From Candidatus Cloacimonadales bacterium (GTDB lineage Bacteria; Cloacimonadota; Cloacimonadia; Cloacimonadales; JAFGVF01): a DNA stretch of 64,000 nucleotides. The notes under the pieces were generated by a model. That model saw only the letters and a program-made list of their open reading frames with translations. It was not told where the DNA came from and did no database searches. The position numbers and the translations under genes are program-made. The stretch is taken from contig OY759729.1 in NCBI GenBank assembly GCA_963662585.1, positions 1,784,234 to 1,848,233 of the forward strand, in the 5' to 3' direction. Position 1 is the stretch's first letter, and every line of letters starts with the position of its first letter. Of the stretch, positions 2,346 through 55,973 are shown one piece after another.

Positions 2346-3413
2346 ATGAATTATAGAATTTTATCATCGAAAGATAAACAAGAATGGAATAAATACTTTG
2401 AATTATTACCAATTGAGCAACAAGATGTTTATTATACGCCAGAGTATCATCAATTATATGAAGAGAATGGAGATGGCAAGGCTCAGTGTTTTTTATTTGA
2501 AGAAGATGGAAAGGTTGCTTTATATCCATACTTAATCAACTCGGTTAATGAACTTGGTTACCAATTCAATGAAGAGTATTTTGATATACAAGGGGCGTAC
2601 GGATATAATGGAGTTGTTGCAAATTGCTATGATAGCGACTTTATAGATCGTTTCTTTAAAATATTTGATGCATATTGTTTAAAAGAAAATATTATCGCTG
2701 AATTTACGCGATATAATCCAATACTTGAAAATCATGAATTTGAATCTAGGTTTGAACCGATATACGCATTAGATAATGTTCTTATAGATATTTCTACTGA
2801 TATTGATACCATCTGGAGAGAATCATTTGATAATGGGGTTCGTAAGGCTGTAAAAAAAGGAATCAGAAATGAGCTGGAATATATAAGTTTTCGCGGTGAT
2901 GAAATTACTGATGATTTATTAAAAGCATTTTTAGATATTTATTATTCAACTATGGATAGAAATAACGCTAGTAATTTCTATTATTTTTCAGAAGATTATT
3001 TTTATCAAATGAAAAATTTAATTCCTGAAAGGATATTATTTAGTTTTGTGTTAAAAGATAAAAAAATCATTTCAGTTGAGTTGAATTTACTAAATACTGC
3101 TAATTCTTATGGCTTTTTAGGTGGGACTCTTGCTGATTATTTTCAAATCTCTCCTAATAGCTTTTTAAGGTTTGAACTTATAAAAGATCTTAAAAAGAGA
3201 GGTATTCTGAATTATTCAATAGGGGGTGGCATCACTAAGAATGATTCTAAATATAAATATAAAAAAAGTTTTTCAAAGAATATTGAAAGCAAGTTTTTTA
3301 TTGGAAAAAAAATTCATAATGAAAAGATATATAAACATGTGATAAATCAGTGGAAAAGTATTTATAGCAAAGAAGATAATAATAAATTATTAAGATATAG
3401 GGATGTTAAATGA
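2346..3413 (+). CDS. FemAB/BioF2-like GNAT-fold acyltransferase (tentative)
   Basis: 355 aa. The start abuts the upstream stop. General resemblance to FemAB-type proteins found in glycan loci, but no diagnostic motif could be pinned down by eye. Confidence 0.35.
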   Translation: MNYRILSSKDKQEWNKYFELLPIEQQDVYYTPEYHQLYEENGDGKAQCFLFEEDGKVALYPYLINSVNELGYQFNEEYFDIQGAYGYNGVVANCYDSDFIDRFFKIFDAYCLKENIIAEFTRYNPILENHEFESRFEPIYALDNVLIDISTDIDTIWRESFDNGVRKAVKKGIRNELEYISFRGDEITDDLLKAFLDIYYSTMDRNNASNFYYFSEDYFYQMKNLIPERILFSFVLKDKKIISVELNLLNTANSYGFLGGTLADYFQISPNSFLRFELIKDLKKRGILNYSIGGGITKNDSKYKYKKSFSKNIESKFFIGKKIHNEKIYKHVINQWKSIYSKEDNNKLLRYRDVK

Positions 3414-4621
3414 GGATCGCACTGATATGCCATTTTTCCAATAAGGAAGTTCAAAATATAATCAAACCTTGGAAAAAAATAAATGAATTCGCTCCCTGGA
3501 TTTCCTATTATATAGATGAATTTTGGAAACATCCTGAACATCATTTTTACATTATTTCCCCTCATCAGTGGTTAAAAAAAGACAAAATATATACTGAGGG
3601 GAATATAACGTTTTATTTGTTTAAATATGGGGTTCCATTAATAGGTAGAAGATGGCCTTTTACATTTGATTTAGATTATTATACTGGGTATAAAAAGAAC
3701 ATTAAAAAGGTAAAAAATTACATAGATGCTATAAACCCTGATGTCATTAATTTAATTGGCGCTGAGAATCCATATTACTCTTCATCTATTATGCAATTTA
3801 AAGATAAGTATCCAGTTTTACTCACAATTCAGGGGTTTGTAGGTAGAGCAAGATTAGATTTTAAACTGACCAAGTATTGGAAGTATAGATTAGATTTAGA
3901 AAATTCGATAATATCTACATTTAATCATTTTTGTATCAGAACTGAGGAAATGTTTAATTACATAAAAACTATTAACCCACAGGCAATAGCTTACAGGTTC
4001 AATTTTCCCACACCTTACGGTAAAATTCAGATAACAGAAAAAAAGAAAGAATATGATTTTGTGTTTTTTGCAAGAATTTCTAAAGAGAAGGGAATTTATG
4101 ATTATCTTAATGCTATAAAAAATATTAAAAATAAGTTGCCGACAATAAAAGCGATTATAGTTGGCCCTTGCAGTATTAAAATGAAAAATAAAGTATTAGA
4201 TTATATAAAAGCTAATAATATTCAAAATAATATTGAATTTATAGGATTTTTACCAAACCAACACGAGTTATTTGTGAAAATTAAAAGCGCTAAGATATCT
4301 GTTCTTCCAACATATAATGACTTGATTTCGGGAACTATTATTGAAAGTATGTTTCTCAGCTTACCAGTTGTTACATATAGAACAGGTAGCATTCCTGAGG
4401 TTAATAAGGATAGGGAAAATATTTTGATTTGTGAACAAGGTAATCAGCAAGCATTAGCTCAAGAAATGTATAGGCTGTTAATGGATACTACACTGCAAGA
4501 AGAATTATCTTTATATGGTAAGGAGTGGGTTAGTGAAAGATATAATAATGAAAAAGCAATGTCAGGTTATTTCAAAGCATTAAAGCAGATAATCAAAGAA
4601 TTTAAAAATAAAAGGAACTAA
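3410..4621 (+). CDS. Glycosyltransferase family 4 (GT-B)
   Basis: 403 aa. C-terminal donor-binding region FFARISKEKG…SGTIIESMFLSLPVVTYRTGSIPE. ATGA overlap with the upstream gene. Confidence 0.7.
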   Translation: MRIALICHFSNKEVQNIIKPWKKINEFAPWISYYIDEFWKHPEHHFYIISPHQWLKKDKIYTEGNITFYLFKYGVPLIGRRWPFTFDLDYYTGYKKNIKKVKNYIDAINPDVINLIGAENPYYSSSIMQFKDKYPVLLTIQGFVGRARLDFKLTKYWKYRLDLENSIISTFNHFCIRTEEMFNYIKTINPQAIAYRFNFPTPYGKIQITEKKKEYDFVFFARISKEKGIYDYLNAIKNIKNKLPTIKAIIVGPCSIKMKNKVLDYIKANNIQNNIEFIGFLPNQHELFVKIKSAKISVLPTYNDLISGTIIESMFLSLPVVTYRTGSIPEVNKDRENILICEQGNQQALAQEMYRLLMDTTLQEELSLYGKEWVSERYNNEKAMSGYFKALKQIIKEFKNKRN

Positions 4622-4714: not shown

Positions 4715-6016
4715 ATGTTACAAAAAGATAAGTTTAAACTAGTAGATGCTATTGTTTTAATGGGAATGTTATCAACACTACTAAGTGTTTTAAGTAATAG
4801 ACTGCCTGTAGGCTTAGGCAGTTTTAGGTTTTTCTGGGGTCCGGCGATTATAATTGTAATACTGATAACTAAACCTCAATTGCTAATTAAAAGTCCAATA
4901 AAACAAGTAGCTCTATATGGATTTTTTGTAATTTTATTGCTCCAATATACTTTATGGAGACATCTGTCTGAACAGAATCATAGTAATATTGTGGAAGAAT
5001 TTCGTAATATAATAAATTTTTCTATAATATGGGCATATTATTATTATTCCAAGAGAATGAGCATGTTTTCAAAGATATCTCGATTTAGTTTTGTATTTAT
5101 TCTAATTACAATTATAACCACAAACATTGCATTAACAATTAATCCTCTTATAATTAGAGATTCAGCAAACAGTTTTTTTGCTGATGTTTCTCAAAGAAGG
5201 CTTTTTAGAATACTTGGTTCTGCCGGTTATGGTTATGCACAAGCTTTTGTAATGTTAATTCCAATATTAATTTATCATATAAAGAAAAACACAAAACTAG
5301 TATTAACGAAAAGATGGCTTTGGCTCGTGTTGTTTGCAATAATTGTTACTACTTTGAGATCTCAAGTTTTTGCTAATATGCTAGTTATGATAGCGACCTC
5401 ATTATTATCATTTGCAGGGTCTAAAAGAAGGAAAGCCATGTATCGTTATGTTTTTATATTTTTTCTCCTTTTTATAATAATACCCAATAGTACATACATT
5501 AATTTATTAAATTCGGTAAGCGAATACTTTCCTGAAGAATCTAATACATATTCAAAGATTAAAGATTTAGCTATGTTTATTGAAAATCCGGAATTAGAAA
5601 TGACAACAGGTACTGGAAGTAGAGCTGCGCGATACCCTCTTCTTTTCGAAGCATTGTTAAGAAAACCTATATTTGGAGATGCTTCTTACGAAAGTAAAAT
5701 GTCAATAGGTGCAGGTGGACATCTCTACCTGATGAATAAGTTGGCTCTTTTTGGTATTTTTGGTTTTTCTCTTTTTATTTACATGTTATATAAAATATAT
5801 AAATCTATAAGTCGTTTAATTTATGATAATGAAATGGCGTTTTATTATTTTTTATCAGTATTAGCATTTATAATGTTCGGATTAATCAAAACTGTTGGAG
5901 GAAGAGAAGTGTGGGTATTTTTAATAATAGTGATACCCGGACTATTTCTAGGTACTTTAGAAGATATGGAACAAGAAAGATTATGTTCAGAGGAAAACAA
6001 TGATGTTCAAAAATAA
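4715..6016 (+). CDS. Wzy-like O-antigen/capsule polymerase or ligase-family membrane protein
   Basis: 433 aa, about 10 or more hydrophobic helices, no soluble domain. Position inside the glycan locus. Confidence 0.5.
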   Translation: MLQKDKFKLVDAIVLMGMLSTLLSVLSNRLPVGLGSFRFFWGPAIIIVILITKPQLLIKSPIKQVALYGFFVILLLQYTLWRHLSEQNHSNIVEEFRNIINFSIIWAYYYYSKRMSMFSKISRFSFVFILITIITTNIALTINPLIIRDSANSFFADVSQRRLFRILGSAGYGYAQAFVMLIPILIYHIKKNTKLVLTKRWLWLVLFAIIVTTLRSQVFANMLVMIATSLLSFAGSKRRKAMYRYVFIFFLLFIIIPNSTYINLLNSVSEYFPEESNTYSKIKDLAMFIENPELEMTTGTGSRAARYPLLFEALLRKPIFGDASYESKMSIGAGGHLYLMNKLALFGIFGFSLFIYMLYKIYKSISRLIYDNEMAFYYFLSVLAFIMFGLIKTVGGREVWVFLIIVIPGLFLGTLEDMEQERLCSEENNDVQK

Positions 6017-8377: not shown

Positions 8378-9047
8378 TTTAGCCACGGATAACACAGAAA
8401 AACACTGATAAGAGAAGAAAAAAAATTATAAAAGTAAGATAATAGTTATTAAAAACATATTGTACTCGCTATTAACTTTAAAAATAATAATGAAATTACA
8501 AGATGTTTATTCTATTGATATTGTTGTATTAATCCGTGTTATTCGTGGCTAAGAAAAAGAGGAAGTTATGTTATTTGAACAGGAGTTATCAGACAAGGTT
8601 TTGGGGTGTGCATTTGAAGTATATAATACTTTAGGTAATGGTTTTTTAGAAAAGATTTATGAAAAAGCTTTACTAATAGAATTAGAAAGTAAAAATATTA
8701 AAGCTGAATCACAAAAAGAGATAAAAGTATATTATAAAAATAATTTAGTAGGTGAATATTTAGCAGATATTATAGTTGAAGGTAAAATAATACTTGAGTA
8801 AAATCTTGTTCAACTATCAACGATGCACATTTAGCTCAACTAATTAATTATCTTACCGCAACAGGAATTAAAATAGGTTACATACTAAATTTTGGTAAGT
8901 TTGGATCACTGCAATTTAAGCGGGTAGTAAAATAAAACAAGAAAAGTTAAAAGCACACTGCGCATAACAGAAAAGCGGATTTTAGTATTTGACTAACAAC
9001 AAAGCAATATTTCTTATCCGTGTTCATCAGTGTTATCCGTGGCTAAA
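8378..9047. repeat. Inverted-repeat cassette 3 between fnlB and fnlC, carrying a decayed GxxExxY gene
   Basis: Left arm 8378-8412 (TTTAGCCACGGATAACACAGAAAAACACTGATAAG). The reverse complement of 9013-9047 matches it at 31/35. An extra short right-type arm lies at 8531-8553. Confidence 0.65.
8568..8935 (+). pseudogene. GxxExxY-family (PD-(D/E)XK-like) gene with a 1-nt frameshift
   Basis: ORF 8568-8801 encodes the N-terminal 77 aa (LGNGFLEKIYEKAL). The C-terminal part (KSCSTINDAHLAQLINYLTATGIKIGYILNFG…KRVVK*) continues in the +1 frame to 8935. This is consistent with loss of one T in CTTGAG(T)TAAAATCT near 8799. Confidence 0.7.
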
Positions 9048-9061
9048 AGAAAGGACAAAAC

Positions 9062-20894: not shown

Positions 20895-21575
20895 ATGATA
20901 ATTATTACTGGAGCATCTAAAGGGATTGGTAACTATTTAACAAAGAAATTTATGGAGGAGGGTGAAGAGGTTTTTGGTACCTATAATACCACTATTCCTA
21001 ATAACATAAATAATGAACTATTAACTAAAGTAGATGTTAGTGATTATTCTTCTGTTGAGAAATGGATTCATTCACTGACAAATAAAAAAAATTTAGTCTT
21101 AATTAATTGTGCAGGTATAAACTATAACTGCTTTGCTCATAAATGTGATATTGATAAGTGGGTTGAAGTTATTAATACAAATTTGATTGGTTCTTTTAAT
21201 ACTATTAGGTCTATTCTTCCCTATATGAGGCAAGAAAGCTTTGGTAGAATAATTAACTTCTCTTCTATTGTAGCACAAACAGGTGCAATGGGAGCTTCTG
21301 CTTATGGAGCTTCGAAAGCTGGTTTATGGGGACTTACTAAATCCTTAGCTAAAGAAAATGGGAATAAAAACATCACTATTAATAATTTGAATATTGGATA
21401 TTTTAATATTGGTATAATCTCTGAAGTTCCTGATAATTACCAAGATTACCTAAAAACACAAATACCATCAGCAAAATTTGGTGATCCTGAAGAGATATTT
21501 AAAATAGTTAAATACCTGATTGATAGTGAATATGTTAATGGAACTTCGATTGATATAAATGGTGGATTGTATTAA
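20895..21575 (+). CDS. Short-chain dehydrogenase/reductase (FabG-like)
   Basis: 226 aa. ITGASKGIG cofactor motif and YGASKAG (Y-x3-K). Confidence 0.75.
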   Translation: MIIITGASKGIGNYLTKKFMEEGEEVFGTYNTTIPNNINNELLTKVDVSDYSSVEKWIHSLTNKKNLVLINCAGINYNCFAHKCDIDKWVEVINTNLIGSFNTIRSILPYMRQESFGRIINFSSIVAQTGAMGASAYGASKAGLWGLTKSLAKENGNKNITINNLNIGYFNIGIISEVPDNYQDYLKTQIPSAKFGDPEEIFKIVKYLIDSEYVNGTSIDINGGLY

Positions 21576-22021
21576 GAACTTAAGATTTACCACTAAGTCA
21601 CAAAAGTCACTAAGAAGAAAGAATTTTTTAGCCACGAATGAACACAAATTAACACGAATAATTTAAGACAAGGTGAATAAGAATTTTTACCACAAAGGCA
21701 CAAAAGACACAAATAAAATGAAAAGAAGAATGTTGAATTGTTTAGGTGTTTAAAATTTTCAAAAAAAATAGTTATTGAAATCACCCCCTGTGTCCCCCTT
21801 GAGGCGTCGCACAAGGCTATGGAAGGGGATTTAAGAGATTTATTATGGAAGCAGGGACGCTTCCATTCCATAGGAATCACCCCTTGTGTCCCCCTCATGG
21901 AAGGGGATTTTAAGAGTTTAGGAATTAAGTTCTAGCCACAAATTAACACAAATAAGAAAAAACAATAAGAGTTTTATCAGTCTATTACTTTAAATTAAAG
22001 GATGATATTACAGGTAAAAAT
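21576..22021. repeat. Repeat-filled intergenic block: four left-type CCAC… arms plus an H1-H2-H1 hairpin triad (21779-21910)
   Basis: Arms TTACCACTAAGTCACAAAAGTCAC, TTAGCCACGAATGAACACAAATTAACACGAATAA, TTACCACAAAGGCACAAAAGACACAAATA and CTAGCCACAAATTAACACAAATAAG. Hairpins TGGAAGC-AGGGAC-GCTTCCA and ATCCCC…GGGGAT. Confidence 0.6.
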
Positions 22022-22444
22022 ATGCCAAACACAACAATAGACAAAATCAGAAAAGCCTTTAATGCAACTAAGAAGCCTGAAAAGATTAATGAATCTTTAG
22101 CAAAAGCTAAATCTATATTCGAGGAAAGTCTAAAAGAGCAATTTGTCAGGTGTGAAAAGATAGATTTCAATGATGTGGTTTTGTATGAGTATAAATCTTT
22201 TTCTAGTTCAGGATGTTATCTCTGTAATGAAAGTACTTTTGTTTTGTTGAATGTTAAAGCTCATCCTAATTTTGTGAATTACTGGAAGATTAAAACCGAT
22301 GGCCTGGCAGAAAAGATTGAGAATGCGATTGTGTTTTTTGAGAAAGGGAGTCATGGTGTGTCTGAAGTAGTGTTATCGAAGTATGAGATTGAGAAAAGAA
22401 GGGGCTTGCTGAAGCAAGAATTAAAAGATAAAAATGAAAAGTGA
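22022..22444 (+). CDS. Hypothetical protein (140 aa)
   Basis: ORF only, with no recognisable motif. Embedded between repeat blocks. Confidence 0.4.
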   Translation: MPNTTIDKIRKAFNATKKPEKINESLAKAKSIFEESLKEQFVRCEKIDFNDVVLYEYKSFSSSGCYLCNESTFVLLNVKAHPNFVNYWKIKTDGLAEKIENAIVFFEKGSHGVSEVVLSKYEIEKRRGLLKQELKDKNEK

Positions 22445-22687
22445 AAAGTTGTGGTATTGCCTTGCAATGATGATCTGAAGAAGAAAGAAGTTTTAGCCAC
22501 TAATGAACACAAATTAACACGAATAATTTAAGACAGGGTGTAATAGTGACGGGGAGACATAGAGACAAGGCGATTAAGAGATTTAATTATTTAAGAGTTT
22601 ATAAATTTAAAAATAAGAATAGAACACAGTATACTCAGAGTGGACAGATTAATAAGATAGAGTGACGGGGATTTTAAGAATTTTTAT

Positions 22688-22806
22688 GGAATCACCCCTG
22701 TATCCCCCTCATGGAAGGGGATTTTAAGAGTTTTATTATGGAAGCAGGGACGCTTCCATTCCATAGGAATCACCCACTGTGTCCCCCTCGTGGAAGGGGA
22801 TTTTAA
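22688..22806. repeat. H1-H2-H1 hairpin triad (second copy)
   Basis: ATCACCCCTGTATCCCCCTCATGGAAGGGGAT / TGGAAGCAGGGACGCTTCCATTCCATAGG / ATCACCCACTGTGTCCCCCTCGTGGAAGGGGAT. Nearly the same as 21779-21910. Confidence 0.7.
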
Positions 22807-22912
22807 AACTTTTTTCAACTTTTTTTTCAAAAGTGGACCATTTTCAGAAAAAGTGGGCCCTATAAGTATATGAAGGGTTAATAACCTTAATACTTAAAAA
22901 GGAGAAACCATT

Positions 22913-23281
22913 ATGAGTTTCCAAAAAAAAGAAAATTTAGTAGCAGTTAATGAAGAGTGTCCAGTGTTAGCAAAGGAAAGACAGAAGAAAAAAGAAGTGT
23001 GTGAATATTTAGCATTAGTCTCCAATTTATTATTACTTGTAGATGATTTCACAGAAGAATATCTAGCTGATATGAAACAATTAAGGTTTGAAGTAGAACA
23101 TTATTTATACAAAGGTATTAAAAATTTAGATCCTGATTTTCCTTGGGATGATCCTTTTTGCAAAGTAGGATCTGGAGAAACAAATAACGAAGATGTTCCT
23201 GAAGGGATGTATGAAATACTTAAAGAATATCTTGAAGAAGAAGAAATAATAGCTAATAAGCAATTAGCTTCTCCCTGTTAA
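22913..23281 (+). CDS. Hypothetical acidic protein (122 aa)
   Basis: ORF preceded by RBS AAAGGAG and followed by a strong terminator. No recognisable motif. Confidence 0.45.
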   Translation: MSFQKKENLVAVNEECPVLAKERQKKKEVCEYLALVSNLLLLVDDFTEEYLADMKQLRFEVEHYLYKGIKNLDPDFPWDDPFCKVGSGETNNEDVPEGMYEILKEYLEEEEIIANKQLASPC

Positions 23282-23345
23282 TACAATAGATTCTTAGTCT
23301 CAATGTCGTGGTTTATAAAATTTAATTAGTTTGGCCTCCTTTACA

Positions 23346-23382
23346 CTGCCGAATAAGTATTTCTTGTTCGGCAGTTTTTTTT
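23346..23382 (+). terminator. Rho-independent terminator
   Basis: CTGCCGAA-(13 nt loop)-TTCGGCAG followed by T8. Confidence 0.7.
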
Positions 23383-23420
23383 AATCTGAAAAGAACAAGA
23401 TCTTTCACACGAATTAACAC

Positions 23421-23888
23421 AAATTAAAGACGAATTTCACAAATTAAGAGAAAGAAAAGAAAAATCCTTAACACAGAGTTGTACAGAGGTTAAGAGGAGT
23501 TTCACAGAGTTTTGTAGGGTGCAAGTCATTATTCGCCATCTTAAATGAAGTTTTAACCACAAATGAACATTAATAATTAAGACAAAGTGATGGAGTGTCG
23601 GAGAGACAAGGAGAATAAGAGTTTTCACCACTTAGACACAAAGGCACTAAGAAGAGAAAGAATATAAAAGTGAAAAATGAAAAGTTAAAGAAGTTTTAGC
23701 CACGAATGAATACAAATTAAAGACGAATTTCACAAATTAAGAGAAAGAAAAGAAAAATCCTTAACACAGAGTTGTACAGAGGTTAAGAGGAGTTTCACAG
23801 AGTTTTGTAGGGTGCAAGTCATTATTCGCCCTCTTAAATGAAGTTTTAACCACAAATAAACACGAATAATTAAGACAAAGACTAAGTG
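23421..23888. repeat. Direct duplication of a ~175-bp segment (copies at ~23421 and ~23714, offset 293 bp)
   Basis: The first ~145 nt differ at 1 position. Each copy contains a left-type arm TCCTTAACACAGAGTTGTACAGAGGTTAAGAGGAGTTTCACAGAGTTT and a CCACAAAT… arm. Confidence 0.7.
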
Positions 23889-24021
23889 AAGGAGTGACGG
23901 AGAGAATTTTTATTACTAATTTGTTTTCATCATTAGTGGAATGTATTTTTTGTGTCTTAGTGTCTTTGTGGTGATAAATATTCTTGGACTCCCCTCTTAT
24001 GGAAAGGGGATTTATATGAAA

Positions 24022-24064
24022 AGACTGATTAATAGGTAAAAGCCTAATAATCAGTCTTTTTTTT
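24022..24064 (+). terminator. Candidate Rho-independent terminator
   Basis: AGACTGATTAATAGG-TAAAAG-CCTAATAATCAGTCT (one mismatch) followed by T8. It is not obvious which transcript it ends. Confidence 0.5.
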
Positions 24065-24136
24065 ATTGACAAGTTTATTGACTATAGAATAGTTAAGAAG
24101 AGAGGATTTAAGATAGAAGCGGAATATGATAATGAA

Positions 24137-24277
24137 GCACCCCCTGTGTCCCTCTTGAGGTGTCGCACAAGGCTATGCCCTCACAGGCTATGAGGGGAAT
24201 TTTAAGAGATTTATGGAAGCAGAGACGCTTTCATTCCATAGGAAACACCCCCTGTGTCCCCCTCGTAGAGGGGGATA
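24137..24277. repeat. H1-H2-H1 hairpin triad (third copy)
   Basis: CACCCCCTGTGTCCCTCTTGAGG…, TGGAAGCAGAGACGCTTTCATTCCATAGG, ACACCCCCTGTGTCCCCCTCGTAGAGGGGGAT. Lies directly upstream of the sugar transferase gene. Confidence 0.7.
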
Positions 24278-24302
24278 AATAAATTTGAGAGAAGGTAGTG
24301 TG

Positions 24303-25910
24303 ATGAAAAAGAAGGTTTGGTATCTTTTATATTTACTGTTGGATATAGGAATAGTTCTTTTTTCTTTTGCGGTAGTCGCATGGTTAAGGAACGGGACTCG
24401 TAAAGTCCTAGTTGTTTATGCTAGACCGGTGATAGGTTTATCTGTCGCATGGGTTATTGCTGGTTTAATCGGTGGGAAGTTCTCGATTAAGAATAAACCA
24501 AGGTTAAGATCCTTGTGGGCTTCGATTATTAAGAACGATGCAATGGCCATTGCGGTTGTTTTTGGGGCTATGATCTTCTTCCATAGGTTTGAGTATTCTC
24601 GCTATATTACTTTTGGAACTATCGGTTTAACTATTGTTATAGAATTAATTATTTTTGGATTGATGTATTTTTCTTTTAGATTTCATAAGGATAATCCTTC
24701 TTTTGCTAAAACTACCTTTATTACTAAGTCTAAAAAATTAGAGGAAGAGGGTTCTGCTTATGAGTTATCCAAGTTTGAATCTTCCGATAAGGTACCTGAA
24801 AGTCCTATTAAGATAGTGAAACATTATTGTTTGGAAGATAAAATTCAGAAGCAATCGATGAAGCAATTACTGAAAGATAAATTCCTCCATGATGAAGAGG
24901 AAATATTTGAATTTGTTAATAAATATCTTGATCTTGATTGTTTCTGCAAGGATAAGTCTATGGTGATTAACAGTCATGCACTTTATAATATTGAGAGCAT
25001 AGATTCCGGTTCACAAGCTCTGTTTATGAATCTACATAAAGCTAATAATTTTCGAAGAATCAATCAATATATCATTCAGGTAAATGAGAATCTTACTCAT
25101 GGTGGTGTTTTTGTTGGTTGTGTAGAAACAAAAAATCAAAGACGAAGACGCTTCATTAAGACTTATTCTGTTATTTTTGGTAATATTTTTTATTTTATAG
25201 ATTTTATTCTACGCCGAGTTTTTCCTAAACTTGCTCTTCTAAAAGGCTTATACTTCGCTATTACTAAAGGGAAAAACAGAGCTTTTAGTGAAACTGAAAT
25301 TTTAGGTAGACTCTACTTTTGTGGTTTTGAGCTATTAGCTAAGAGAGAGATTCATGGAATAAACTACTTTATTGCAATTAAGACTAAAGAACCCTCTCAA
25401 GATGAAAGTCCATCTTATGGTCCGATTATTCAGTTAAAACGCAAAGGGAAGAATGGTAAACTTCTCTATGTTAATAAATTTAGGACTATGCACCCTTATT
25501 CAGAATATCTTCAAGATTATGTTTATAAGACTTGTAGTCTGCAAGAGGGTGGTAAATTTAAAAATGATTTCCGGGTTACTCGTTGGGGAAAGGTATTCCG
25601 TAAATTATGGATTGATGAGCTTCCTCAATTTATTAACTTCTTTAAAGGTGAACTTAATTTAGTTGGTGTCAGAGCTCTTAGTGAACATTACTTTAGTCTT
25701 TATCCGGAAGATGTAAGAGTGCTTAGGGTTCAGGTTAAACCAGGCTTATTGCCTCCATTTTATGCAGATATGCCGAAGACATTTGAAGAGATTGTTGCTT
25801 CGGAGAAGAAGTATTTGTTGCAGAAGATAGAGAGACCGGTGTGGACGGATTTTAAGTATTTCTGGTTGGTATTATGGAATATAATCGTGAAACGAGCTCG
25901 AAGTAACTAA
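24303..25910 (+). CDS. Polyprenyl-phosphate sugar-phosphate transferase (WbaP/WcaJ-type initiating enzyme)
   Basis: ATG 24303 (MKKKVWYLL…). N-terminal TM helices. C-terminal bacterial sugar-transferase motifs KFRTM…DELPQFINFFKGELNLVGVRAL. Confidence 0.75.
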   Translation: MKKKVWYLLYLLLDIGIVLFSFAVVAWLRNGTRKVLVVYARPVIGLSVAWVIAGLIGGKFSIKNKPRLRSLWASIIKNDAMAIAVVFGAMIFFHRFEYSRYITFGTIGLTIVIELIIFGLMYFSFRFHKDNPSFAKTTFITKSKKLEEEGSAYELSKFESSDKVPESPIKIVKHYCLEDKIQKQSMKQLLKDKFLHDEEEIFEFVNKYLDLDCFCKDKSMVINSHALYNIESIDSGSQALFMNLHKANNFRRINQYIIQVNENLTHGGVFVGCVETKNQRRRRFIKTYSVIFGNIFYFIDFILRRVFPKLALLKGLYFAITKGKNRAFSETEILGRLYFCGFELLAKREIHGINYFIAIKTKEPSQDESPSYGPIIQLKRKGKNGKLLYVNKFRTMHPYSEYLQDYVYKTCSLQEGGKFKNDFRVTRWGKVFRKLWIDELPQFINFFKGELNLVGVRALSEHYFSLYPEDVRVLRVQVKPGLLPPFYADMPKTFEEIVASEKKYLLQKIERPVWTDFKYFWLVLWNIIVKRARSN

Positions 25911-25913
25911 GAG

Positions 25914-27065
25914 TCCTTAACACAGAGTTACACAGAGGTCACCACAGAGTTTAACGGAGTTTTAAGAGAGTTATTATTAATAAGAATGATAGATTAAAAA
26001 AGTAGCCAAGAATAAAGATGTCATTTGGAACAGAGACTGGATAAGCTTAAAATCAGAGTTGAAGAGAGTAAGAAGAAGATTCTTAATTCCTTTAATTTCT
26101 TGGATGGTGCAGTGTTAATGATGAAATTTAAATTTAGAAAAAGATCTTTACGTTACAGATGTAAAATACTGTGGGAAATCATGTTCTGTTGTATTGTATT
26201 AAACTCTGTGAAACTCCTCTTAAACCTCTGTGTAACTCTGTGTTAAAGGAAAATTATATTAAGTAAAAGGAGGTTGCTGGTATGTATGAAGAATTAACAG
26301 AAAGAATTTTAAACTGTGCTTATAAGGTACATAGTAAGCTTGGTGCTGGTATGTTAGAGTCTGTATATCAAAGATGTTTAAGTTACGAACTAACTAAAAA
26401 TGGTATAAAGAATGAAACAGAAAAAGCAATTCCATTAAAGTATGGAGATATGTTTATTGAAAATGCTTTTAAGATTGATATCTTAGTTGAAAATTGCGTA
26501 ATCTTAGAATTGAAATCTGTTGAAAAGTTTAATGAACTGCATCAATCTCAGATATTGAGTTATATGAAGACAGCTGAGAAAAAAGTAGGCTTGTTGATAA
26601 ATTTTAATGTGGGTAGTTTGAGGAATGGGATTAAAAGATATAGCTTGTAATTCCTTAATGTAGAGTGAAGAGAAGATCCTTAACACAGAGTTACACAGAG
26701 GTCATCACAGAGTTTCGCAGAGTTTAAGAGAGAAAGAAAGAAGATTCTTATTTTTTTTAATTTATTGGATGGAGAAGTGTTAGTGATGAAATATAAATAT
26801 AGAAAAAGATCTTTATGTTAGATTTGTAAAGTACTTTGCGAAATCATGTTTTGTTATATTATATTAATCTCTGTGAAACTCTGTGTTAAGGAAAAATAGT
26901 TTGAAAAGAATATCCTTGATACAAAGTTTGAAGATACTGGTTAATATAGAAAAGTTACCAAAATTTAGAGTTTAATTTATAAAAGTGAAGAAGAGCATAA
27001 TTTATTGTATTATATTAAACTCTGTGAAACTCTGTGGTGACCTCTGTGTAACTCTGTGTTAAGGA
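25914..27065. repeat. Nested inverted-repeat cassette 4 enclosing an intact GxxExxY gene
   Basis: Outer left arm 25914-25962. The reverse complement of 27017-27065 matches it at 47/49. Inner right arm 26201-26250, inner left arm 26677-25 (26677-26725, also 47/49 to the outer right arm), and a truncated right arm near 26866-26892. The ~150-bp cores at ~26085 and ~26745 are diverged copies of each other. Confidence 0.7.
26282..26650 (+). CDS. GxxExxY-family protein (PD-(D/E)XK nuclease-like superfamily)
   Basis: 122 aa. LGAGMLESVYQRCL (GxxExxY), DILVENCVILELKSV and SQILSYMK are typical of the family. RBS AAGGAGG upstream. Confidence 0.8.
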   Translation: MYEELTERILNCAYKVHSKLGAGMLESVYQRCLSYELTKNGIKNETEKAIPLKYGDMFIENAFKIDILVENCVILELKSVEKFNELHQSQILSYMKTAEKKVGLLINFNVGSLRNGIKRYSL

Positions 27066-27094
27066 AAAATAGTGAGTAAGTATTAGGAGAAAAG

Positions 27095-28150
27095 ATGAAG
27101 ATTTTAATAACAGGTACAGCCGGATTTATCGGCTTTCATTTAGCAAACAGGTTGCTCAAAGAGCAAGATGTTGAGATAGTAGGATTAGATGTAATTAATG
27201 ATTATTATGATTTGAGAGTAAAGTATGGTAGATTAGCTGAAGATGGTTTTCCTCTCCAGAACATTCGTTATGGCGAGATTATTCAGAGTGAGAAGCATGC
27301 TAACTACAGATTTATAAAATTAGATTTATGTGATAGAGCTAAACTCTACAAACTTTTTCAAAATGAGGAGTTTGATGTCGTAGTAAATTTGGCTGCACAG
27401 GCTGGAGTCCGCTATAGTATTACCAATCCTGATGCTTATTTAGAGAGTAATATTATTGGTTTCTTTAATATTTTAGAAGCATCGCGTCAGAATAAAATTA
27501 AGCATTTAGTTTATGCTAGTTCTTCTAGTGTTTATGGTTGGAACGACAAGCTTCCTTTCTGTACCACTGATAATGTGGATCATCCTATTTCACTTTATGC
27601 AGCCAGTAAGAAATCTAATGAATTATTAGCTCATTCTTATAGTGCTTTGTATGATATTCCTACAACAGGTCTAAGATTCTTTACAGTCTATGGTCCATGG
27701 GGCAGACCTGATATGGCTCTATTCCTTTTTGCCAAAGCAATTGCTGAAGGAAAGCCGATTGATGTCTTTAATCATGGTAAAATGAAACGCGACTTTACTT
27801 ACATTGATGATATTGTAGAAGGTATAAAACGCGTGATTTATCATCCTGCCCAGCCAATGCCAGGCTGGAGTGGTGAAAATCCTACTCCAGGAGCTTCAAA
27901 AGCACCATATAAGATCTATAACATAGGAAATAACGATACTGTATTGCTAATGGATTTCATCGAAGCTATTGAGGAAGAAATGGGCAAGAAAGCCATTAAG
28001 AATATGTTGCCACTTCAACCAGGGGATGTTCCTGCTTCTCATGCCGATGTTACTGATTTAGTTGAAGATCTAGGTTACAGACCTAATACTCCTATTAGGG
28101 AAGGGGTGAAGAAGTTTATTGAGTGGTACAAGAATTTCTACAGAATTTGA
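27095..28150 (+). CDS. UDP-glucuronate 4-epimerase (CapI/WbnF/LpsL-type NAD-dependent epimerase)
   Basis: 351 aa. ITGTAGFIGFHL, YAASKKSNE (Y-x3-K), FTVYGPWGRPDMA. Confidence 0.8.
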   Translation: MKILITGTAGFIGFHLANRLLKEQDVEIVGLDVINDYYDLRVKYGRLAEDGFPLQNIRYGEIIQSEKHANYRFIKLDLCDRAKLYKLFQNEEFDVVVNLAAQAGVRYSITNPDAYLESNIIGFFNILEASRQNKIKHLVYASSSSVYGWNDKLPFCTTDNVDHPISLYAASKKSNELLAHSYSALYDIPTTGLRFFTVYGPWGRPDMALFLFAKAIAEGKPIDVFNHGKMKRDFTYIDDIVEGIKRVIYHPAQPMPGWSGENPTPGASKAPYKIYNIGNNDTVLLMDFIEAIEEEMGKKAIKNMLPLQPGDVPASHADVTDLVEDLGYRPNTPIREGVKKFIEWYKNFYRI

Positions 28151-28540
28151 CGGAGAGACAAAGAGATGGAGATTTTTTTCGCCTGTGGCTCAAAGACGGG
28201 GAGACGGGGTGATGGAGAGAATGTAGGGGCAAAACATTTTTTGCCCAATGAATGATTAGAGATTCTGAAAAATGGACTTTTTCCAAGTCAGAAGATGGAG
28301 AGACAAAGAGATAGAGAGGGGAATTAAGCCACGAACTAAAGGTCCTTAACCCTATTTATAAAGATATAAAGATAGACAAAGAGAATGGAGCTTTGATTAA
28401 AGGTTTTCATTGAATACAAAGAATTATTAGAATGGAAAACAAGAAGATAATGATTTATGGAAAAGATGGATGTAAGAGTATTTTTCTTTCTCTCTATCAC
28501 TCCCTCTCTCCATCACTTTGTCTTTTTTTCAAGGAAATAT

Positions 28541-29463: not shown

Positions 29464-32458
29464 TTTTATAAGGTATTTCGCACGCAAGGGTGCATGCAAT
29501 CCGGCAGAAGAGGTCTTATCATGCTGTAAACTATCATCTTTAGTGATTAACTGGGGTTACGGACCTTTAGTCCGTGAATACATCAGGCTGTATTTCAGTC
29601 TGTTTTATTTAATCCCTTTGGGATTGAATGACACAGGGGGTGTTTTCTTCTATGGAGTGGAAGCGTCTCTGCTTCCACATTAGACAAAAATAAGATAACA
29701 TTAGAATTTTATAAGGTTTTTCGCATGCAAGGGTGCATGCAATCCGGCAGAAGAGGTCTTATCACATTTGTTACCTTTTTAGGATATGTCGCCCTGCTAG
29801 GGCTATATGCTGGTTGTTTCCTCTAGGAGTGTCTTGCGAACACTCCCTGTTATATGTTATCCCTCCGGGATGTAAAAGGCTCGACAAGAATACAGCACAT
29901 TAAACCAGGATTAAAGAGGTCAACATTATTCACCATTCTACCAGCTCCCTCTGCAGCTAAGAAGATTTTGAAGGATTAATGAGAAATTTTATAAGGTATT
30001 TCGCACGCAAGGGTGCATGCAATCTGGCAGAAGAGGTCTTATCATGCTGTAAACTATCATCTTTAGTGATTAACTGGGGTTACGGACCTTTAGTCCGTGA
30101 ATACATCAGGCTGTATTTCAGTCTGTTTTATTTAATCCCTTTGGGATTGAATGACACAGGGGGTGTTTACTTCTATGGAGTGGAAGCGTCTCTGCTTCCA
30201 CATTAGTCAAAAATAAAATAACATTAGAATTTTATAAGGTTTTTCGCATGCAAGGGTGCATGCAATCCGGCAGAAGAGGTCTTATCAAATTTGTTACCTT
30301 TTTAGGATATGTCGCCCTGCTAGGGCTATATGCTGGTTGTTTCTTCTAGGAGTGTCTTGCGAACACTCCCTGTTATATGTTATCCCTCCGGGATGTAAGA
30401 GGTCCCGTATCAAGTATTTATTACAGCACATTAAACCAGGATTAAAGAGGTCAACATTATTCACCAATCTACCAGCTGCCTCTGCAGCTAATAAGATTTT
30501 GAAGGATTAATGAAATATTTTTATAAGGTATTTCGCACGCAAGGGTGCATGCAATCCGGCAGAAGAGGTCTTATCACATTTGTTACCTTTTTAGGATATG
30601 TCGCCCTGCTAGGGCTAAATGCTGGATGTTTCTTCTAGGAGTGTCTTGCGAACACTCCCTGTTATATGTTATCCCTCCGGGATGTAAGAGGTCCCGTATC
30701 AAGTATTTATTACAGCACATTAAACCAGGATTAAAGAGGTCAACATTATTCACCAATCTACCAGCTGCCTCTGCAGCTAAGAAGATTTTGAAGGATTAAT
30801 GAGAAATTTTATAAGGTATTTCGCACGCAAGGGTGCATGCAATCCGGCAGAAGAGTTCTTATCATGCTGTAAACTATCATCTTTAGTGATTAACTGGGGT
30901 TACGGACCTTTAGTCCGTGAATACATCAGGCTGTATTTCAGTCTGTTTTATTTAATCCCTTTGGGATTGAATGACACAGGGGGTGTTTTCTTCTATGGAG
31001 TGGAAGCGTCTCTGCTTCCACATTAGACAAAAATAAGATAACATTAGAATTTTATAAGGTTTTTCGCATGCAAGGGTGCATGCAATCCGGCAGAAGAGTT
31101 CTTATCATATTTGTTACCTTTTTAGGATATGTCGCCCTGCTAGGGCTATATGCTGGTTGTTTCTTCTAGGAGTGTCTTGCGAACACTCCCTGGTATATGT
31201 TATCCCTCCGGGATGTAAGAGGTCCCGTATCAAGTATTTATTACAGCACATTAAACCAGGATTAAAGAGGTCAACATTATTCACCATTCTACCAGCTCCC
31301 TCTGCAGCTAAGAAGATTTTGAAGGATTAATGAGAAATTTTATAAGGTATTTCGCACGTAAGGGTGCATGCAATCTGGCAGAAGAGGTCTTATCATGCTG
31401 TAAACTATCATCTTTAGTGATTAACTGGGGTTACGGACCTTTAGTCCGTGAATACATCAGGCTGTATTTCAGTCTGTTTTATTTAATCCCTTTGGGATTG
31501 AATGACACAGGGGGTGTTTACTTCTATGGAGTGGAAGCGTCTCTGCTTCCACATTAGTCAAAAATAAAATAACATTAGAATTTTATAAGGTTTTTCGCAT
31601 GCAAGGGTGCATGCAATCCGGCAGAAGAGGTCTTATCAAATTTGTTACCTTTTTAGGATATGTCGCCCTGCTAGGGCTATATGCTGGTTGTTTCTTCTAG
31701 GAGTGTCTTGCGAACACTCCCTGTTATATGTTATCCCTCCGGGATGTAAGAGGTCCCGTATCAAGTATTTATTACAGCACATTAAACCAGGATTAAAGAG
31801 GTCAACATTATTCACCATTCTACCAGCTCCCTCTGCAGCTAAGAAGATTTTGAAGGATTAATGAGATATTTTATAAGGTATTTCGCACGCAAGGGTGCAT
31901 GCAATCCGGCAGAAGAGGTCTTATGATGCTGTAAACTATCATCTTTAGTGATTAACTGGGGTTACGGACCTTTAGTCCGTGAATACATCAGGCTGTATTT
32001 CAGTCTGTTTTATTTAATCCCTTTGGGATTGAATGACACAGGGTGTGTTTTCTTCTATGGAGTGGAAGCGTCTCTGCTTCCACATTAGACAAAAATAAGA
32101 TAACATTAGAATTTTATAAGGTTTTTCGCATGCAAGGGTGCATGCAATCCGGCAGAAGAGGTCTTATCACATTTGTTACCTTTTTAGGATATGTCGCCCT
32201 GCCAGGGCTATATTCTGGTTGTTTCTTCTAGGAGTGTCTTGTGAACACTCCCTGTTATATGTTATCCCTCCGGGATGTAAGAGGTCCCGTATCAAGTATT
32301 TATTACAGCACATTAAACCAGGATTAAAGAGGTCAACATTATTCACCATTCTACCAGCTCCCTCTGCAGCTAAGAAGATTTTGAAGGATTAATGAAATAT
32401 TTTTATAAGGTATTTCGCACGCAAGGGTGCATGCAATCTGGCAGAAGAGGTCTTATCA
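29464..32458. repeat. Composite tandem array: 12 copies of a 58-bp hairpin repeat (J) alternating with two body types (A 185 bp, B 222-231 bp)
   Basis: J starts at 29464, 29707, 29987, 30230, 30519, 30807, 31050, 31338, 31581, 31869, 32112 and 32401. Periods are 243 (A) and 280-289 (B). Order: A B A' B B A B A' B A B. Confidence 0.9.
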
Positions 32459-32550
32459 TTTACTTAAGTTAATACTAAAACTCTGTGTTAAGGAACTTCT
32501 CTTATTCTTTCTTATTAGTGAAATTAGTGGATAGATTCTTCTTGCTTAAA

Positions 32551-53927: not shown

Positions 53928-54320
53928 GAAAAATCTACCAATAATTTCACGAATTAAGAAAATATCCTGAAGGGATTAAATAGATTAGCCCAGGGTCTCA
54001 TTTTTTGAAGAAAAATTGACCCTGGGTATGGTACACCAATATTTATTTAACCCTGTCTTGTGAAGGCGAAGCATTAGCGTAGACTCAAAGGGTTTAATAG
54101 AGAAAATAATAATTACTAAAAAATCGGTCAAATTATTTAGGACTGAACATTCACACGAATTAACGCGAATGTAGGGGCCAATTGCCATACGCCTTCTTGA
54201 AAAGTTCCCTAACACAAAGTTTTTAAGAAAAGTTTTGAGAATGTGATAAGATCTCTTCAGCCGGATTGCATGCACCCTTGCATGCGAAAAACCTTATAAA
54301 AATCTAATGTTATCTTATTA

Positions 54321-55973
54321 CTAATCTTTCCGACACCTAAGTTATTGCAAATAAACTACTAATTTGCACATCATAGCGACTCATATGTCTTTTTATCAGT
54401 TAATTATGCAATTCTGCCATTATACCGAATATCTACCTCTGTGATTTTATCTATAATTTCTTCATTTTCAAAGAATTTTCTTATCATGATATCAACATCC
54501 TTTCTTAACTCAGTTAAATTTGTGTATCCATAAGCTATTGAATAATCGATGAAGTCTTTTACTTTTTGAGTAAAAATCGTATTAATAAATATGATTAATG
54601 ATGCATCTTCAAGCTCTTCATAAAATTCAATTAATAACTGTTCCATAGAAGGATATGGTTTTTGCTGTTTTTTGTAACATAGTATGTTATAAAAAACATA
54701 CCTAATAGTCAAATCAGCTATCATAGCAGAGTATTTTGAAGAATGGCTCTGATTATATCCAAAATATTGTTTAATCTCTTTAAATACACATTCTATTGAC
54801 CATCTTCTCATATAAATTTTTAAAACTTCTATTTCTGAAAGTTGTAAATCAGTTGCTAAAATAGCCTTCCATCTTTTAACATTAGGGTACTTAAAAAAGC
54901 ATATTTTAATCTTTTCTATTACTTTTCTTTCATTTATTTTTCTTGAACTTGAAGTATCTAATAATTCAACAATAACAGATTTATATTTTATTCCGGATTT
55001 CCTATCATAAAACCATTTACCAGCTATTTTGTTTAGGGTTTTCAAATCATAATATTGACCTTTAAACTTATATTTCTGGGAACCATTTTTTAACATAGAC
55101 ACTAGTGTTATTCCAAGTGGTACAAGTCTTTTAAATACAAAGTTATAACTTGTGTTGTTATTGAACCAAGAATCCCATAATACATATTTAAAAGGTATTT
55201 TTCTCTGAATAGTGCGTTTTATCATTTTAATTACAATTTGAGTCTTCTTTTCTTTTGAGAAACGATTTCTTTGCTCAGTATGAGTGCCTTTGTGGTATCT
55301 GGGTCTTTTTGACTTTTTGACTTTTTTCTTTCCAATTTTTAATTCAAAATCTAATACAATAGCTGATAACCCATTACTCCACACTTCAGTTATGTTTTGA
55401 AACCCTTTGAAGTATTTTGATAAACAGTGATCATGAAACCAACTGATATATTCTGTCTTTTTCCCTGTTTTTACTTTCGATGTATCATCAAAAATTATAC
55501 AATTATCATTTTCACAGGAAGTATCACTTAGCTTAATAAACCTTAAAGCAACTTTATATAATAGATTTCTCCATTTATAATTAGAGTTGTTTAGCATATC
55601 ATTAATGGGTGTTTTAAATTTTGATATATTATTGAATTTTAGACCAAAATATAAGGATTTTTTATTCTCAAGAATCATGAACATAAAAAGAAGCATCAAT
55701 TCAATGATGGTATGACCTTTTTGTTTTACTATACCAACTTGCTTCAAAATACTTCCAAATTTAAATATTTCAAATAACTCTATTATTAATCCTGAATTCA
55801 AGCTTGACACTTTTACCTGTTTGTATTTTTTTAGCATATATACCTCGTTTTTTATAGTTTCGTTTATTTCCGTAAACAACTAAACTATAATCATATACGA
55901 GGTATTTTTGTCAATATCTATTTTTATCTATTTTATTGTTACACAACAACTTAATTCATGTCGGAAAGATTAG
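54321..55973 (-). mobile_element. IS4-family insertion sequence (1653 bp)
   Basis: 15-bp perfect terminal inverted repeats CTAATCTTTCCGACA. 6-bp direct duplication TTATTA (54315-54320 / 55974-55979). An uninterrupted paralogous site occurs at ~56451-56470. Confidence 0.8.
54404..55879 (-). CDS. IS4-family DDE transposase
   Basis: 491 aa. D (IIFDDTS), D (VLWDSWF) and an exact Y-x2-R-x3-E-x6-K signature (YMRRWSIECVFKEIK). Confidence 0.8.
   Translation of the reverse strand: MFTEINETIKNEVYMLKKYKQVKVSSLNSGLIIELFEIFKFGSILKQVGIVKQKGHTIIELMLLFMFMILENKKSLYFGLKFNNISKFKTPINDMLNNSNYKWRNLLYKVALRFIKLSDTSCENDNCIIFDDTSKVKTGKKTEYISWFHDHCLSKYFKGFQNITEVWSNGLSAIVLDFELKIGKKKVKKSKRPRYHKGTHTEQRNRFSKEKKTQIVIKMIKRTIQRKIPFKYVLWDSWFNNNTSYNFVFKRLVPLGITLVSMLKNGSQKYKFKGQYYDLKTLNKIAGKWFYDRKSGIKYKSVIVELLDTSSSRKINERKVIEKIKICFFKYPNVKRWKAILATDLQLSEIEVLKIYMRRWSIECVFKEIKQYFGYNQSHSSKYSAMIADLTIRYVFYNILCYKKQQKPYPSMEQLLIEFYEELEDASLIIFINTIFTQKVKDFIDYSIAYGYTNLTELRKDVDIMIRKFFENEEIIDKITEVDIRYNGRIA

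Follow-up and report, generated by a model that had tools for sequence, protein, structure and literature searches.

The element described here is a block at positions 25914-27065 of a 64,000-nucleotide stretch of a Cloacimonadales chromosome (the window, to whose full length all positions refer), in which an intact GxxExxY gene lies among inverted arms made of tandem CACAGAG-type words. Among the known systems that come closest to it are the intervening sequences (IVSs) of 23S rRNA. Those of Leptospira and Coxiella carry an S23p/23S_rRNA_IVP open reading frame (ORF), and the terminal stem of such an IVS is cut by RNase III (PMC4990558). The likeness lies in the form of the element, which is small (~430-500 nt) and has one ORF of ~120-135 amino acids flush between terminal inverted repeats, in the possible stem of ~28 bp, and in a sporadic distribution that has long raised the suspicion of selfish DNA; terminal inverted repeats that form a long stem around a small ORF occur both in the window and in the gene family. 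However, the cassettes considered here lie between protein genes of operons and not in helix 9, 25 or 45 of the 23S rRNA, and the window contains no rRNA at all, its cassette being placed between a sugar-transferase and an epimerase gene. The ORF of the cassette is a predicted PD-(D/E)XK nuclease (PF13366), whereas that of the IVS is a four-helix bundle, and the arms of the cassette are arrays of a conserved heptamer.

The second system to be compared is that of the repetitive extragenic palindromic (REP) sequences, REPINs and RAYT genes, known from the literature of Nunvar, Ton-Hoang, Bertels and Rainey. There too a low-copy gene is flanked by inverted copies of a short repeat, there is no target duplication, and the repeat is dispersed without the gene as singlets and inverted doublets, all of which is seen here as well, with gene-less hairpins also in other phyla. 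RAYT is a Y1/HUH transposase (PF01797), however, whereas the cassette gene belongs to PF13366 and gave no match to PF01797. In addition, a REP is a single palindrome of 20-40 nt with a GTAG head and is specific to a lineage, in contrast to the tandem heptamers of the cassette and to a word that is shared across phyla.

Integron cassettes, too, are small ORFs that lack a promoter, share one orientation and lie within imperfect inverted repeats, and different ones can occupy the same site in related genomes. The core sites of attC follow the consensus RYYYAAC and GTTRRRY; the ends in the window, CCTTAAC and GTTAAGG, are each one base off, and the ends in the family at large are TTCAC...GTGAA. 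GxxExxY cassettes differ further in having an arm on both sides of each cassette with three to four boxes per arm rather than two, and in being scattered in housekeeping operons rather than gathered in arrays. Miniature inverted-repeat transposable elements (MITEs) share the inverted repeats with the cassette but are also marked by target-site duplications, of which none was detected for it. Free-standing homing endonuclease genes, such as seg and mob of phage T4, encode GIY-YIG or HNH enzymes and stand between conserved genes. The small gene for a predicted nuclease studied here is similarly wedged between co-directional conserved genes, sporadic and without target duplication, but homing endonuclease genes do not have conserved terminal inverted arrays.

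From the comparisons reported below, the block is probably a promoterless, selfish GxxExxY nuclease cassette with word arrays as its ends, which has been multiplied locally. GxxExxY genes are paired with inverted CACAGAG-like words in many phyla, and this pairing is apparently undescribed: no paper linking the PF13366 family or TIGR04256 to a repeat was found among open-access papers and bioRxiv preprints. The arrays change by word slippage and unequal recombination between strains, and in related genomes one intergenic site can be occupied by different cassette genes that each come with words of their own.

GxxExxY genes and inverted word arrays across phyla

In JGI metagenomes, 80 loci were found that encode relatives of the window protein, 41-55% identical to it and ranging from 32 to 69% in GC content. 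These loci were picked by peptide patterns only, and the choice was therefore blind to the flanks; they represent one part of the family (40-89% pairwise identity) together with a few distant members. At least two C[AG]C[AG]GAG words were present on the sense strand within 200 nt upstream of the gene in 43 of 74 unrelated metagenomic loci, and downstream as the reverse complement also in 43 of 74, with both sides occupied in 37 of 74. The background for the same number of words was 3 of 542 segments. When redundancy was removed, 35 of 70 loci had both arms, a figure that rises to 48 of 70 with a broader word class. An unbiased count led to the same word, since CACAGAG was the top 7-mer in the 200 nt upstream (29 of 75 loci in sense, 5 in antisense) and its reverse complement was the top 7-mer in the 200 nt downstream (29 of 79), against a background of 1.7%.

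The words are found next to the gene. They occurred in 64 of 86 gene-adjacent intergenic regions versus 3 of 67 other intergenic regions of the same loci, and in each of those three the words form a hairpin with the same arms and no gene. Comparison of the upstream segment with the reverse-complemented downstream segment gave a median score of 16.8 versus 9.5-10 in controls; a score of at least 22 was reached by 40% of the loci and by 0% of the reversed, complemented and shifted controls. The variants seen in paired segments were CACAGAG, CACGGAG, CGCAGAG, CACGAAG, CACTGAG and CACAGTG. A typical arm has the prefix TTCAC or TTAAC followed by mostly three words, spaced by 9 nt (129 cases), 10 nt (54) or 8 nt (26), and it ends a few to a few tens of nucleotides from the start or stop codon. 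In other phyla the typical cassette consists of a single left arm and a single right arm with the gene between. The neighbouring genes are co-oriented upstream in 54 of 62 loci and downstream in 47 of 59, with median gaps of 64 and 73 nt.

Cultured bacteria also carry the cassette. It lies between leuA and leuB in Runella salmonicolor, between gpsA and pgi in Dysgonomonas sp. 521, between manC and an epimerase gene in Algoriphagus pacificus and, with CGCGAAG words, between fabD and fabG in Sphingomonas parapaucimobilis.

Conservation of the words and of the pairing

Having both arms from 41 cassettes, we compared them with each other position by position. Word positions mismatched in 6.6% and spacers in 37% of cases (p=1e-39); six of the seven word positions had 0-4% mismatch between the arms, whereas word position 4 had 34%. 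Differences compatible with G.U pairing in the sense transcript showed no bias, with 71 cases versus 104 of the opposite kind and 199 transversions. The heptamer CRC-N-GAG, and not a continuous helix, is therefore the conserved feature. Words that are kept while spacers are not are the pattern expected of sites read by a protein.

Both arms of a given cassette are always built from the same type of word, and the word class did not correlate with GC content in the sampled subfamily. Cassettes with a 23S_rRNA_IVP gene also have inverted tandem-word arms, made of other words: GACGGGG, GGGGAGA and GAGACGG in one IVP subfamily, and TTAAACAA or TTTAAGAG in others. The words thus go with the cargo gene, so that arms and gene behave as one heritable unit.

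These results bear on the main rival explanation, which is not exclusive with a selfish cassette. The block could be an RNA element of the 23S rRNA IVS type, in which a stem of ~27-50 bp would be cut by RNase III to excise or insulate the ORF and so control its translation; pairing would then be the function, and the words would merely be how stems grow, by slippage. Such an element fits the presence of PF05635 (IVP) genes in equivalent cassettes at the same sites here, the co-orientation of cassettes with their neighbours and the lack of a promoter of their own, the constant word type in both arms of a cassette, and the predicted transcript fold, in which both long stems form at a minimum free energy of -322 kcal/mol. 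It does not fit the distribution of differences between arms, with 34-37% mismatch in spacers and at word position 4 against 0-4% at the other six positions and no excess of G.U-compatible changes, nor the retention across phyla of one heptamer that pairing does not need, the IVP cassettes showing that arbitrary words serve. Moreover, most arms in Cloacimonadota are unpartnered, and in a sister strain a 22-nt deletion breaks the long stem. On this evidence we regard the IVS-type element as rather unlikely.

Layout of the block

The cassette sits in a long plus-strand polysaccharide operon. The features of the block, together with those of the same arm family and of a second cassette elsewhere in the window, are as follows; L001 and L017 are related genomes described in the next section.

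25908-25910: stop codon of the sugar-transferase gene
25914-25962, plus strand: left arm L-b, TCCTTAA and then tandem CACAGAG-type words with a period of 10-12 nt
25963-26054, plus strand: spacer of ~92 nt from arm to core, an insertion relative to 26726-26737 and missing from the second hairpin unit
26055-26200, plus strand: core 1 of hairpin unit H1, 85-94% conserved in all copies accompanying this gene lineage
26201-26250, plus strand: inner right arm R-a of CTCTGTG words, closing H1 (25914-26250) or alternatively pairing with 26677-26725 around the gene
26267-26273, plus strand: Shine-Dalgarno sequence AAGGAGG of the GxxExxY gene, as read from the sequence
26282-26650, plus strand: intact GxxExxY gene, PF13366 PDDEXK_3, 122 amino acids
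26677-26727, plus strand: left arm L-b', start of hairpin unit H2
26728-26863, plus strand: core 2, 86% identical to core 1
26864-26892, plus strand: short right arm R-short, closing H2 and resembling the outer right arm minus 22 nt
26913-26941, plus strand: degenerate left arm TCCTTGATACAAAG..., which is directly 3' of the gene in L017
26975-27014, plus strand: third core end, incomplete, with 76% identity to 26159-26216
27015-27065, plus strand: outer right arm R-b, with a 22-nt deletion in the sister strain L001
27085-27089: AGGAG of the epimerase gene, whose ATG is at 27095
23465-23513, plus strand: solo left arm of the same arm family, within the 293-bp tandem duplication 23408-23880
23758-23806, plus strand: the same solo left arm again, in the other unit of that duplication (unit 2)
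32478-32495, plus strand: lone right-arm end fragment AAACTCTGTGTTAAGGAA
8385-9049, plus strand: second GxxExxY cassette of the window, its gene (8569-8935) a frameshifted pseudogene

An earlier note on this DNA had described a right arm that pairs with two different left arms, and this was confirmed: 25914-25962 and 27017-27065 form an inverted repeat of 49 nt (96%, 47/49), and 26677-26727 and 27015-27065, with the arm extended, form one of 51 nt (96%, 49/51). The inner right arm, said to match best with arms 2.4 kb upstream, does so at 46/48 with two 1-nt gaps for the left arms at 23465 and 23758; its matches to the local left arms are lower, at 42/48 and 44/48. The two diverged cores (86% identity over 144 nt between 26073-26216 and 26738-26881) and the intact gene were found as described, and the block does fill the space that had been assigned to it, opening 3 nt past the sugar-transferase stop and closing 19 nt short of the ribosome-binding site (RBS) of the epimerase gene. 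In addition to those arms there is the short third right arm at 26864-26892, and the 8 nt after it (AAAATAGT) duplicate the flank that follows 27065. The arm sequences are strongly concentrated here: the 23-mer TTAACACAGAGTTACACAGAGGT, with up to three mismatches, occurs seven times in the window versus 0.00 expected, and CACAGAG 25 times versus 3.6 expected, with 19 of the 25 within 23472-27058.

Because two left and three right arms of one family lie inside 1.15 kb, alternative stems can be drawn. These had been taken to be mutually exclusive; pairings of near-equal quality do exist, but exclusivity is not required. In the thermodynamic fold of 25900-27090 the outer stem 25914:27065 and the inner stem 26201-26250:26677-26725 around the gene are formed simultaneously, all four long arms being paired.

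Promoter-like sites at the cassette were not in excess (5 versus 7.8 expected), and no terminator was detected inside it. Since it lies between co-directional host genes with neither a promoter nor a terminator of its own detected, it is presumably read through from the host operon. Seven copies of the hairpin-unit core, analysed with RNAalifold, gave -17 kcal/mol with a covariation term of -0.24 and hence no conserved fold, and Rfam returned nothing for the window (gathering thresholds), for the region (E<=1) or for 20 typical GxxExxY loci. The core was not seen as a dispersed repeat: of the 114 matched loci listed, none but this locus and its orthologues contained it. There are no tRNA genes in the window that could serve as insertion targets. 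A small ORF in the core (26025-26246, 73 amino acids) was rejected as a gene; other copies have stop codons, or EMLEL in place of MKFKF.

The second cassette of the window is organised like the main one, with a left arm (8385-8420), a right arm (8531-8554), the gene and another right arm (9016-9049), and it has its own word family of CACGGAT, CACAGAA and CACTGAT.

The same locus in related genomes

No close relative of the gene that could be a population variant, that is, none above 55% identity, was present in the JGI metagenomes, and the variants came from ENA assemblies. In L001, a 3.1-Mb ENA contig, the protein is identical and the DNA is 98% identical over the aligned block and ~96% over the wider shared region. 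The named Cloacimonadales genome L017 (OY829950.1) has the orthologous locus with a gene ~90% identical, and a third assembly (L195 and L196) has the locus with proteins 94% and 89% identical.

A deletion of 22 nt in the outer right arm of L001 falls exactly between two direct CTCTGTG words; as a result the arm equals the short arm 26864-26892, and the 47/49 stem is lost. L001 also has a single copy of the 293-bp unit of which the window has two (23408-23880). The arrangement in L017 is the simplest, in the order transferase stop, left arm, 68 nt, frameshifted gene, TCCTTGATACAAAG, ~125 nt, short right arm and epimerase, without the hairpin unit 26677-26912, core 1 and the inner right arm. L195 has an additional solo left arm at the locus, a remnant of the 3' end of a GxxExxY gene between the short and outer right arms, and a duplication of the right arm with 19 nt of flank. 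The four genomes thus all differ at exactly these arms, which supports the earlier proposal that the arms are a substrate for recombination; no inversion between arms was seen among them. Because the arrangement differs in each of the four, the long stems are not conserved.

At the site between the transferase and epimerase genes, the window, L001, L017 and L195 have a GxxExxY cassette; L034, another Cloacimonadota genome, has an IVP cassette there, with the IVP gene between inverted GACGGGG word arrays (3620-4420). The next site, between the epimerase and VanZ genes, holds an IVP gene in L001, an IVP remnant in the window, a bare hairpin in L017 and, in L195, a second full GxxExxY cassette, whose gene stands between two near-identical direct units of left arm, core and right arm. 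These intergenic sites are cassette hot spots, and structural change happens at the arms.

Some smaller observations belong to these sites. In L034 a leftover CTGTGTTAA fragment of a CACAGAG right arm follows directly after the transferase stop codon. The 23S_rRNA_IVP remnant of the window is at ~28150-28310 and corresponds to an intact gene of 133 amino acids in L001 (7970-8421); ~390 bp have been lost at a short AATG/ATATG microhomology, and GACGGAG/GATGGAG word arrays, whose inverted partner is at 28489-28522, flank the remnant. Only L196 has, beyond its VanZ gene and ~1.4 kb further along (5231-5473), the C-terminal fragment of a Y1 (IS200/RAYT-type) transposase; the window contains nothing that corresponds to it.

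The GxxExxY protein

The product of 26282-26650 scored 140 bits with the TIGR04256 profile (cut-off 35) and 139.7 bits with PF13366 (cut-off 22). The motif after which the family is named reads GMLESVY at residues 23-29, and D66, E76 and K78, at the catalytic positions of the fold, are invariant across 72 homologues. The AlphaFold (AF2) model, with a predicted local distance difference test score (pLDDT) of 95.5, has a minimal PD-(D/E)XK core of alpha-alpha-beta-beta-beta-alpha-beta topology. Foldseek against the PDB returned Cas4 SSO0001, lambda exonuclease, Bax1 and a tRNA-splicing endonuclease with template modelling (TM) scores of ~0.5, which are generic relatives only, and no solved structure related by sequence was found. 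A survey of PD-(D/E)XK proteins lists PF13366 as of unknown function (PMC3424549). The PF13366/TIGR04256 family is very large, a single query giving more than 6,500 clusters.

Phage records contained no homologue of the gene. Plasmid records gave eight hits, six of them on large non-mobilizable replicons (0.4-1.6 Mb) and two on plasmids that are small (25 and 42 kb). Carriage by plasmids or phages is therefore not typical of the cassette.

Arms without the gene

Arms also occur alone. The 22-mer TTAACACAGAGTTNNACAGAGG was found in more than 113 places in species-representative genomes among the matches listed, which came from six Cloacimonadota genomes, one of Anaerolineales (more than 50 hits), several of Bacteroidota, one of Phycisphaerae and one of Termitinemataceae. 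The cross-phylum identity of this 22-mer was set aside as evidence of horizontal transfer, because exact matches are expected in so large a number of arrays given fixed words and a common prefix and also because the Anaerolineales hits are copies of a single MITE family. Other Cloacimonadota genomes account for ~56 arm loci among the matches listed, mostly solo arms. Their consensus is a strand-specific module of ~55 nt that usually starts shortly after the stop codon of the upstream gene, is flanked by blocks of CACGAAT, CACTAAT and GACGGGG, and often runs into the RBS of the next gene.

A Mu-like prophage occurs at least four times in the genome CAXXJV01. Its solo CACAGAG and CACGAAT modules (L026, at 960-1050, 3376-3480 and 4200-4265) make up the entire spacer between genes and lead directly into the next RBS.

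The Anaerolineales hits, in HSG24 (JAUCGB01, L002-L113), belong to a MITE of 200 bp with more than 50 copies among the matches listed, an interior CACAGAG hairpin of four words and the terminal repeat CTTAGTACCCGACA. Target duplications of ~7-8 bp are apparent by eye in about six aligned copies. A hairpin of CACAGAG words thus rides in a true MITE, and this is one reason to consider that the arms in general are those of a MITE or an integron-type cassette, moved by a transposase or integrase encoded elsewhere with GxxExxY as a passive passenger. The resemblance of the arm ends CCTTAAC...GTTAAGG to attC core sites and the different cassettes at the same sites in different genomes would suit this explanation as well. 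We nevertheless find it improbable. GxxExxY cassettes are not flanked by target duplications, and their arm ends in most phyla are TTCAC...GTGAA, unlike attC. No attI was seen near the cassette, and no integrase or other recombinase was present in the 20 ORFs of 32.5-58.4 kb or in the genes flanking the cassette, a scan that did not cover the 20 upstream ORFs of the polysaccharide cluster. The sole transposase found is that of a DDE_5 gene 27 kb away, which has different end repeats. A passive passenger would also leave unexplained why the same words go with one gene family across phyla and other words with IVP.

Like a passive passenger, the RNA switch proposed in the earlier note is much less likely than a selfish cassette or an IVS-type element: that the alternative long stems are two functional conformations regulating the GxxExxY gene or the downstream epimerase is suggested by the near-equal quality of the pairings and by the same arrangement of one left and two right arms in the second cassette of the window, but we consider it very improbable indeed, given that the stems are not conserved even in the sister strain and that the arrangement differs in each of the four genomes, that all four long arms can pair together, that covariation, an Rfam match, a G.U bias and any terminator/anti-terminator logic are all absent, that arms agree at words and not at spacers, and that typical cassettes elsewhere have one left and one right arm. 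The earlier note is thus confirmed in its observation and partly supported in its interpretation.

How a selfish cassette could have formed and spread

To return to the selfish GxxExxY cassette, its ends are arrays of usually three C-A/G-C-N-G-A-G heptamers that follow a TT(A/C)AC prefix, repeat every 9-11 nt and, inverted with respect to each other, directly adjoin the gene at its start and its stop. The ancestral form is left arm, gene and right arm, as in L017 and most other phyla. In the lineage of the window each end has become a hairpin unit of 220-340 bp (left arm, core, right arm), leaving the gene between two direct hairpin units plus a further partial unit; the short arm, the third core end and the duplication of the right-arm flank then arose by word slippage and unequal recombination. 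We suppose that the arrays at the ends of the cassette are recognised by their sequence, the encoded nuclease being the most economical candidate for this, and that the cassette and its gene-less arm copies spread or are exchanged as selfish DNA at intergenic sites. Homologous recombination between the direct hairpin units might loop the gene out or in, and the arms in the operon transcript would also pair into long stems, as in the IVSs of 23S rRNA.

Several results weigh against this explanation. About one third of the GxxExxY loci do not have such words. The class of the word, CAC or CGC, does not track protein similarity (mean identity 0.573 versus 0.565), and there is no sign of co-evolution of protein and word within the sampled subfamily. 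For no cassette was an empty site found for comparison, so no insertion event was caught, and direct repeats of at least 4 nt flank 12% of the cassettes versus 8.7% of randomly paired flanks, which shows no target-site duplication. The fold search gave only generic PD-(D/E)XK matches at TM ~0.5, and both the nuclease activity and its substrate are predicted. As to the arms outside the cassettes, an inverted partner within 1.5 kb was present for only 7 of 40 Cloacimonadota arms, and the GxxExxY gene was encoded in none of those arm windows; the HSG24 hairpin moves by another route, inside its MITE. Solo arms with no GxxExxY gene in their windows imply that arms persist or spread without the gene nearby. 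By analogy these gene-less arms would fit a relation like that of REPINs to RAYT, yet they are also the main weakness of the idea that the arms depend on the nuclease.

More tentatively, one can imagine that GxxExxY genes and inverted CRCNGAG arrays together form an unrecognised class of autonomous selfish elements across phyla, in which a minimal PD-(D/E)XK nuclease would recognise the word arrays of its own cassette and gene-less arrays would be non-autonomous offspring, with the IVP cassettes (and the words particular to them) as a parallel class and the classical IVSs of 23S rRNA as the special case of cassettes inserted in rRNA; this is possible, and we would not put it higher than that. 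If true, the partnership would be a nuclease-based counterpart of REPIN-RAYT. For PF13366/TIGR04256, a conserved sequence partner provides a concrete candidate substrate, namely inverted arrays of three CRCNGAG words that directly border the gene, which could be sought in the four cultured carriers named above. It also offers a reason why GxxExxY genes and the four-helix-bundle IVP genes are wedged in housekeeping and polysaccharide operons, and a source for some of the short word repeats with which the intergenic DNA of Cloacimonadota is filled, and it connects the rRNA intervening sequences, long without an explanation, with a broader group of cassettes.

Other cassettes and repeats in the window

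An intact 23S_rRNA_IVP gene (101-502) lies at 72-630 between inverted arrays of the TTAAACAA type, with the T-rich arm upstream and the A-rich arm downstream. IVP cassettes with arms of G/A-rich words were also seen between dut and dnaE in several assemblies (L208-L211), a further case of cassettes placed within essential gene neighbourhoods. Within 21575-24285 and 28150-28530, the intergenic DNA of the window consists almost wholly of blocks of other purine-rich words in direct and inverted copies: CACGAAT/CACAAAT, CACTAAG, GACGGGG and a GGGGA-hairpin family at 21780-21910, 22680-22810 and 24130-24280. Two small ORFs, 22022-22444 and 22913-23281, lie amid these word blocks and may be further cassette genes.

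A different repeat of ~55 nt, with the core TTCGCAYGCAAGGGTGCATGCAATC, has 12 direct copies in 29477-32438, a stretch of 3 kb without a long ORF. The copies are separated by two alternating sequences of ~190 and ~230 nt, a spacer diversity that is not CRISPR-like. Three more copies, on the minus strand at 54264, 56403 and 56619, flank the DDE_5 transposase gene (54404-55879), and the array could derive from the ends of a DDE_5 insertion sequence.

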